Below, in pieces: positions 43,705 to 43,762 of a DNA stretch of 64,000 bases. The stretch is from Escherichia phage ECP52, in the sequence record ON782582.1; one strand, 5' to 3'. The notes below the pieces were generated by a model. The model was given only the letters and a program-made list of their open reading frames with translations, had not been told where the DNA came from and searched no databases. The position numbers and the translations under genes were made by a program. The stretch's first letter is position 1, and each line of letters begins with the position of its first letter.

Positions 43705-43762
43705 GTTTACAAGTCCCTCATGTTGTGTTATAGTAGTCTTACTGACATAACATGAGGACTTT
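43705..43762 (+). promoter_or_regulatory. Early promoter cassette with imperfect inverted repeat spanning the -10 and SD
   Basis: GTTTAC 43705-43710; AAGTCCCTCATGTT (43711-43724) / AACATGAGGACTT (43749-43761); near-identical copy at 59003-59063. Confidence 0.5.

Follow-up and report, generated by a model that had tools for sequence, protein, structure and literature searches.

T4-type phages carry promoter-early stem-loop cassettes (PeSLs), which combine a sigma-70-type early promoter, a stem-loop between the −35 and −10 elements or over the −10 element, and a 3′ Shine-Dalgarno sequence, and which occur as repeated copies in a genome, where they are substrates for homologous exchange (Arbiol et al. 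2010, PMC2839356; Comeau et al. 2014, PMC4122927). The later of these studies extends PeSLs to PST and T4, with the consensus TTTACW-N17-TAYWAT (PMC4122927). Hairpins that sequester a ribosome-binding site and contain an internal late promoter are known from the T4 genes e, soc, 49, and I-TevI (review PMC3014915). Long transcripts of these genes hold the Shine-Dalgarno sequence in a helix, while short transcripts from a promoter in the 5′ part of the hairpin do not contain its 5′ arm and can be translated. The internal promoters belong to the late class (TATAAATA), and it is read-through RNA of the early or middle period that stays silent. T4 early (“uber”) promoters have −35, TGn, and −10 elements with 17-nt spacing (Hinton 2010, PMC2988021).

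The DNA analyzed here, a stretch of 64,000 nt from Escherichia phage ECP52 (ON782582.1; the window), belongs to Tequatrovirus, the genus of T4, and its top match is Escherichia phage 121/2022-2B (99.8%). It contains two copies of a promoter/leader cassette, one upstream of alc (copy A) and one upstream of alt.-3 (copy B). Their core elements (TTTACA-17-TATAGT) fit the PST/T4 PeSL consensus except for G at the fifth −10 position. Several other hallmarks of a PeSL are also present, namely, an early promoter, a stem-loop over the −10 element, intergenic bounds (an upstream stop codon on one side, a Shine-Dalgarno sequence and start codon on the other), and recombining repeated copies with gene-content differences (shared variants, a replaced alt.-3 promoter, and a variable alt region). 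The pair is a PeSL by structural definition and an unusually well-preserved one. It differs from published PeSLs in that 15 kb of a largely conserved gene block separates the two copies, in that their identity (94 to 98%) is far above that usual among ECP52 early-promoter cassettes, and in that the 3′ arm of the stem-loop is the Shine-Dalgarno sequence itself, without a terminator tail. This last feature suggests a gate on translation instead of the attenuation proposed for published PeSLs.

The cassettes resemble T4 early promoters in their elements and spacing and in serving early genes (alc and alt.-3), but the homology between copies excludes the UP-element region, and spacer-leader complementarity does not figure in the review of these promoters (PMC2988021). 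As in e, soc, 49, and I-TevI, the Shine-Dalgarno sequence is predicted to lie in a helix in long transcripts, and the promoter in the 5′ part is predicted to yield short, translated transcripts without the 5′ arm. In contrast to those genes, the internal promoter is an early sigma-70 promoter, with no late promoter TATAAATA at either cassette, and the predicted silent RNA is later read-through. The polarity of control would therefore be reversed, early-only rather than late-only, an arrangement absent from the known examples in the review of T4 translational control (PMC3014915). Pairing between the spacer of an early promoter and the Shine-Dalgarno sequence is undescribed in PMC2988021, in PMC3014915, and in the papers reached by full-text searches.

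Anatomy and distribution of the duplicated cassette

Both copies lie on the + strand. Copy A (43705 to 43758) occupies the rnlA/alc intergenic region from the −35 element to the Shine-Dalgarno sequence and has orthologues in the alc promoters of other genera. Copy B (59003 to 59056) precedes alt.-3 and starts on the final base of the second alt gene's stop codon. Direct alignment gave 51 identical bases of 54, with mismatches at cassette positions 16, 18, and 34, and the pair was recovered over the whole window as a repeat-finder family (D13) at 94%. A reading made earlier from the sequence alone had described a near-identical cassette of ∼57 bp duplicated with a handful of mismatches. The duplication is real and the mismatches are three, but its length is 54 nt. 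The homologous block runs from exactly the G of GTTTAC through GAGGA; the upstream flanks of the two copies are unrelated, as are the last 4 to 7 nt before each ATG.

The early sigma-70 promoter of copy A (43706 to 43734) consists of the −35 element TTTACA (43706 to 43711), TG (43726 to 43727), and the −10 element TATAGT (43729 to 43734), and that of copy B (59004 to 59032) has its −35 element at 59004 to 59009, TG at 59024 to 59025, and TATAGT at 59027 to 59032. The promoter scan gave both the same description, namely, a 17-nt spacer, TGnTATAGT with TG present, and a promoter match of 10/12. From the position of the −10 element, transcription is predicted to start 7 nt past it, near A43741 in copy A and A59039 in copy B. 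The leader of each copy then runs for ∼20 nt to the Shine-Dalgarno sequence GAGGA (43754 to 43758 and 59052 to 59056), which is 4 to 7 nt from the ATG at both sites. Copy A starts 3 nt after the rnlA stop codon, and at copy B the alt stop codon TAG overlaps GTTTAC. PeSLs have an AT-rich tract upstream of the −35 element; site B has CTAAAAAGTTCAAAATGTA directly upstream, whereas the nearest 20 nt at site A lack AT richness and an A/T tract lies farther upstream.

Copy A follows rnlA (gene 63; 42577 to 43701, +), RNA ligase 1 by Pfam, and precedes alc (43766 to 44269, +; Pfam ALC, PF17527), the inhibitor of host transcription. Two in-frame ATGs precede alc (43763 to 43768), and the start is probably 43766, as in the T4 annotation, because the first ATG (43763) is ATA in genomes with the TATAATAAT haplotype. 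Copy B follows the upstream transcription unit of tandem alt paralogues (54849 to 56942 and 56946 to 59003, +), a region in which Pfam identified an ADP-ribosyltransferase domain, and precedes alt.-3 (59064 to 59354, +; 96 aa, DUF5498, PF17602). Alt.-3 is non-essential and of unknown function, and C-terminally extended mutants escape the CmdTAC defense (PMC11618068). The genes downstream of the two copies are unrelated and 15,298 nt apart, as the sequence-only reading had stated.

A 76-nt query found 997 places in 499 phage records of the GenBank phage collection, i.e., two per genome, all of Tequatrovirus type. Both copies are present in essentially all of these ∼499 public Tequatrovirus genomes, upstream of alc and of alt.-3, and in T4 (rnlA/alc intergenic region at 136276 to 136339; alt.-3 start at 123032, minus strand) they differ from each other at 1 of 54 positions. 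The search of related phage genomes proposed in the sequence-only reading thus returned both copies, upstream of alc and alt.-3, throughout the genus, T4 included. The cassette pair is old and fixed in Tequatrovirus and is not a peculiarity of one isolate. That reading had recognized neither the presence of the pair in T4 and the whole genus, nor the prior publication of PeSLs, nor the generality of the hairpin architecture among early promoters. The population analysis was based on the GenBank collection; in IMG/VR, a pattern built around the −35 and −10 elements retrieved only seven stretches, too few for such an analysis. A cassette at 96% over 54 nt also lies at the record end (31824 to 31877) of MG010123.1 (Staphylococcus phage SAJK-IND, 32 kb), which is probably a chimeric or contaminated assembly.

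The elements GTTTAC, TGnTA..T, and GAGGA are common to many early promoters, and the two copies might accordingly resemble each other through the generic T4 early-promoter and ribosome-site consensus and nothing more. The comparison set consisted of the 15 GTTTAC-N17-TAnnnT promoters on the + strand of the window, aligned over the same 54 positions. The remaining 104 promoter pairs share a mean of 26.0 of 54 positions (sd, 4.4; maximum, 45), against 51 for copies A and B. Copies A and B agree in 36 of the 39 columns that show no conservation among the other 13 promoters; the mean for the other pairs is 13.3, and the maximum is 30. When up to three mismatches were allowed, the window contained only these two copies, with 0 expected by chance and none in 100 shuffles. 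The comparison of promoter pairs refutes the generic-consensus explanation, which the sequence-only reading had named as the outcome that would undo its proposal and to which we attach practically no probability.

The pair is the extreme among several cassette families in the window. The cassettes at 13157 to 13210 and 16567 to 16620 share 45 of 54 positions and have an identical leader (ACAACTATCAACTACTGATACAGA), the promoter/leader cassettes at 13436 and 34251 share 40 of 54, and the promoter at 33255 also belongs to such families.

Probable origin at alc and continuing exchange

A GTTTACA promoter occupies the rnlA/alc junction in Karamvirus, Moonvirus, Dhakavirus, Klebsiella phage Roth34, Marfavirus, Kanagawavirus, and Lazarusvirus. 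Site A resembles these alc promoters of other genera (Dhakavirus has TCTCCTCATGATGTGTTA), and the spacer pairs with the alc Shine-Dalgarno sequence in Dhakavirus, Karamvirus/Moonvirus, and Klebsiella phage Roth34. At the alt/alt.-3 junction, four outgroups (Dhakavirus, Mosigvirus, a Klebsiella phage, and Karamvirus) likewise place an early promoter in this position, and the ATGTAGTTTACA junction of Dhakavirus is the same as that in Tequatrovirus. These outgroup alt.-3 promoters are of a different type: their hairpin is internal to the spacer (CACCACAAGGATGTGG and related sequences), and the Shine-Dalgarno sequence takes no part in pairing. From the −35 element to the ATG, Tequatrovirus copy B is 85 to 89% identical to copy A but only 65 to 70% identical to its own positional orthologues, while the outgroup alt.-3 promoters are 68 to 79% identical to each other.

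As copy B is nearer to copy A than to its positional orthologues and the outgroup promoter is of a different type, the alc cassette appears to have overwritten the alt.-3 promoter in the Tequatrovirus ancestor. The recombination-mediated promoter transplant that the sequence-only reading had offered as one possibility thus gains support from the outgroup states and the identity matrix. The alc copy would then be in its ancestral place and the alt.-3 copy would have arisen by short-tract ectopic recombination, for which GTTTACA and ACATGAGGA, pre-existing at both ends, are plausible anchors. The alc promoter of Mosigvirus is of B type (77 to 78% identity to the B group), a hint that the exchange there ran the other way.

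The alt region itself is variable. The alt paralogues have diverged to 72 to 80% nucleotide identity in repeated blocks; the window has two, PST has a single alt, and of the second copy T4 has only remnants (alt.-1/alt.-2). The cassette and ∼20 nt upstream of it are retained at alt.-3 in the window, T4, and PST despite these alt differences. The small hairpin motif within the spacer (CCACAAGGAYSTGG and near variants) is found repeatedly, at promoters unrelated to each other and in more than one genus, e.g., at 8882 to 8910 and 13157 to 13185 of the window, at the alt.-3 promoters of other genera, and at the Mosigvirus alc promoter.

No fixed difference between copies A and B was found across 10 genomes read at both sites, and several variants occur at either site. 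The window and an IMG contig carry G16A in copy A, and PST, RB18, and a different IMG contig carry it in copy B. G29A and G32A (TATAGTAGT to TATAATAAT) occur as a linked pair in copy A of KMB39 and REP2, in copy B of sb1, and in both copies of ZCEC15, and G32A alone is seen in copy A of PhiZZ30 and in copy B of Lv5cm. At least 11 records have the TATAATAAT haplotype with exact flanks at site A, and at least 16 have it at site B. The sharing of variants across sites suggests gene conversion as the simplest reading, and occasional conversion between A and B may have kept the copies nearly identical since the transplant.

Alternatively, identical purifying selection on every base might have kept the copies alike, with the shared variants arising in parallel. 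A change from TATAGT to TATAAT, shared by both sites, improves the match to the −10 consensus and could in principle recur, and G16A, which turns a G.U pair into A-U, could be favored at both sites. Parallel selection toward TATAAT is a weaker alternative than gene conversion, however, and it must accommodate a double change (G29A and G32A) that is linked at both sites and an absence of site-specific fixed differences between copies whose flanks are unrelated. Loop and spacer positions are, moreover, visibly polymorphic, so that not every base is constrained, and we regard uniform selection without conversion as quite improbable. Gene 30 (DNA ligase) and gene 31 (co-chaperonin) are essential in T4. 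A crossover between A and B would delete genes such as these, and only non-crossover conversion would therefore be tolerated, rather than the shuffling of open reading frames or formation of mini-circles. Taken together, the anatomy and evolutionary history of the pair described above are highly probable.

Predicted hairpin formation and access to the ribosome-binding site

In the minimum free energy structure of site A, a 5′ arm inside the promoter spacer (43711 to 43730, +; core CCTCATGTTGTGTTA at 43716 to 43730) faces a 3′ arm at 43743 to 43761 (+; TGACATAACATGAGG plus ACTT) that includes GAGGA. The core pairing is 43716 to 43730 with 43743 to 43757, takes in GAGG, and extends to 43711/43761. 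In copy B, the 5′ arm (59014 to 59028, +; CCTCGTATTGTGTTA) has one G.U pair and one A.C mismatch in ECP52, and the 3′ arm (59041 to 59055, +) carries the Shine-Dalgarno sequence of that site. The stem is at least 15 bp, and the −10 hexamer lies partly at the end of the 5′ arm and partly in the loop. The imperfect inverted repeat noticed in the sequence-only reading, with the Shine-Dalgarno sequence in its downstream arm, is therefore confirmed by this pairing and by folding of the whole cassette RNA, which gave −27.7 kcal/mol at site A (z = −5.7) and −16.8 kcal/mol at site B (z = −1.8). Duplex energies of arm with arm were −21.2 kcal/mol for copy A and −14.6 kcal/mol for copy B.

At both sites the predicted +1 falls in the loop, between the hairpin arms, and RNA folded from the predicted +1 is essentially unstructured. 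In calculations for the window, T4, PST, and RB18, opening of the region from the Shine-Dalgarno sequence to the AUG cost 11 to 16 kcal/mol in read-through RNA versus 1 to 4 kcal/mol in RNA from the cassette's own promoter. The predicted probability that GAGG is unpaired in read-through RNA is ≤0.01. For own-promoter RNA of site B, the probability for the Shine-Dalgarno sequence is 0.05, a misleading value that comes from a weak 5-bp helix with the coding region, and opening energy was used in place of this measure.

The surroundings of both cassettes appear to favor read-through. The terminator scan found no terminator between rnlA and alc. At the other site, a terminator hairpin (AAAGGCCTTCGGGCCTTT; 54791 to 54825, +) lies just upstream of alt and overlaps the late-promoter consensus TATAAATA at 54818 to 54825. 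The first + strand terminator past this alt late promoter is a bidirectional one with a perfect 9-bp GC-rich stem (59359 to 59380), between alt.-3 and the convergent gene 54, and later alt transcripts should therefore run into alt.-3. Near-identical hairpins of the AAAGGCCTTCGGGCCTTT type, GGCC/GGGC terminators with a TTCG loop, occur at 6990 to 7019, 12267 to 12304, 12495 to 12532, 50869 to 50906, and 54791 to 54820.

These predictions suggest the following mechanism. RNA from the cassette's own promoter would lack the 5′ arm, leaving the ribosome-binding site open, whereas RNA arriving from upstream (from rnlA at site A and from middle or late alt transcription at site B) would form a hairpin of 15 to 20 bp that buries the Shine-Dalgarno sequence. 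Alc and Alt.-3 would consequently be made only from early-promoter transcripts, as early-only proteins behind genes that are expressed later and are not followed by a terminator. Both read-through and translational block are inferred from folding and from the terminator scan. Time-resolved omics of T4 classify alc and alt.-3 as early RNA and early protein, rnlA as early RNA and late protein, and alt as middle RNA and late protein (PMC9697503 supplement). This pattern is consistent with an early-only gate without proving it, and it also accords with the co-regulation of the two genes that the sequence-only reading had entertained. On these predictions, we lean slightly toward the existence of an early-only translational gate in the cassette.

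The PeSL authors favored an attenuator, and the stem-loop could act mainly as a transcriptional attenuator, a terminator, or a 3′ stabilizer for upstream transcripts, with occlusion of the Shine-Dalgarno sequence incidental. In a transcriptional fusion, the stem-loop of PeSL211/210 cut lacZ about as much as the terminator rrnB T1 did, a result in favor of attenuation over translational control (PMC2839356). The hairpin at alc in Kanagawavirus and Lazarusvirus spans the −10 element but not the Shine-Dalgarno sequence, which five strong dyads of the window also miss. In contrast, the 3′ arm coincides exactly with the Shine-Dalgarno sequence in the cassette and in four genera at alc, and the signature of termination is lacking: no U run follows either stem (the tail is ACTTTATG at site A and AACACAAAATG/AACACAAA at site B), and the terminator scan made no call at either cassette. 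An intrinsic (Rho-independent) terminator is ruled out on these grounds. A mainly transcriptional function is unlikely in our estimation, and a stabilizing role could coexist with the translational gate. Sequence inspection found no RegB site (GGAG) in the cassette, and a search of Rfam 15 returned no family at the gathering threshold, with sub-threshold chance matches only.

Evidence for selection on spacer-leader pairing and its implications

Several observations speak to selection for pairing between spacer and leader, which is not confined to the duplicated cassette. First, across the 15 early promoters of the window, duplexes of each spacer with its own leader averaged −11.6 kcal/mol, versus −7.9 kcal/mol for chimeras (permutation P < 5e-5). 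Eight of these promoters have strong dyads, five of which include the Shine-Dalgarno sequence in the 3′ arm. Second, across the alc promoters of eight genera, cognate spacer-leader duplexes averaged −15.8 kcal/mol, versus −9.9 kcal/mol for cross-genus combinations (exact permutation P = 3/40320). The arms of the alc promoters vary between genera yet remain mutually complementary, as in Karamvirus (TCTCCATTTGGTT/AACCAAATGGAGA). This comparison of cognate and chimeric duplexes replaced alignment-based covariation analysis: MAFFT and RNAalifold, applied to the multigenus alc cassettes, returned only a trivial 5-pair helix because the arms occupy different columns between genera.

Individual promoters of the window (TTTAC starts at 3509, 4588, 13436, 47027, 50046, and 50438) have complementarity between the spacer and their own leader of −11 to −24 kcal/mol. 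The 3′ arm includes the Shine-Dalgarno sequence at 3509, 13436, and 50046, e.g., CTGTTCCTC/GAGGAACAG at 13436.

Stem variants within Tequatrovirus mostly preserve pairing. Pair 16/49 is G.U, A-U, or G-C depending on the copy, U-A replaces U.G at pair 25/40, and U.G replaces C-G at pair 15/50, while G18A, which recurs at site B of ECP52 and of RB18, weakens the stem. Five of the six distinct stem substitutions are compatible with pairing, a proportion that is statistically weak because transitions often preserve pairing.

An inverted repeat might also act in DNA, as a protein operator or as a cruciform that tunes the promoter or its early shut-off. The dyad is centered on the −10 box, and the mechanism of early-promoter shut-off is unknown (PMC2988021, PMC3014915). 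The stems, however, hold two or three G.U pairs, which are C.A mismatches on the other strand, and on their account the sense RNA forms a more stable structure than its antisense counterpart in 14 of 16 cases (10 of ∼12 independent families). This strand bias points to RNA made in the sense direction and not to a DNA palindrome. The arm sequences also vary from promoter to promoter, which leaves no common protein site, and a function in DNA is very improbable.

The Shine-Dalgarno sequence is not a constant partner in the helix. At alc in Kanagawavirus and Lazarusvirus, the 3′ arm consists of +1 to +12 and leaves the Shine-Dalgarno sequence uncovered, pairing is weak in Marfavirus, and the alc promoter of Mosigvirus has no such pairing but only a small hairpin inside the spacer. 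The uncovered ribosome site in Kanagawavirus and Lazarusvirus and the lack of pairing in Mosigvirus imply that the common feature may serve a function other than occlusion of the ribosome site. The broader proposition, that complementarity of the spacer with the leader and Shine-Dalgarno sequence is a general, selected gate on transcript origin in T4-type early genes, moved between genes by short-tract conversion (e.g., from alc to alt.-3), is correspondingly tentative, and we consider it possible while judging the odds to be somewhat against it. The account of the locus as a whole, comprising a cassette pair of the PeSL kind, copying from alc to alt.-3, gene conversion, and a translational gate, is reasonably probable.

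The pair represents a clean, datable transplantation of a regulatory cassette, from alc as the donor to alt.-3 as the recipient, in a conserved part of a T4-type genome, and the shared variants suggest that homogenization continues between two 54-bp copies separated by 15 kb. The recipient is of current interest through the C-terminally extended variants that escape CmdTAC (PMC11618068). As a compact, portable module with a strong early promoter and an insulated ribosome site, the cassette could be of use in engineering T4-like phages. If the translational gate is true, it would explain how early-only proteins can be encoded directly behind late-expressed genes without terminators, would provide an early-only counterpart to the textbook translational control of e and soc, and would give the stem-loops of PeSLs a function besides termination.
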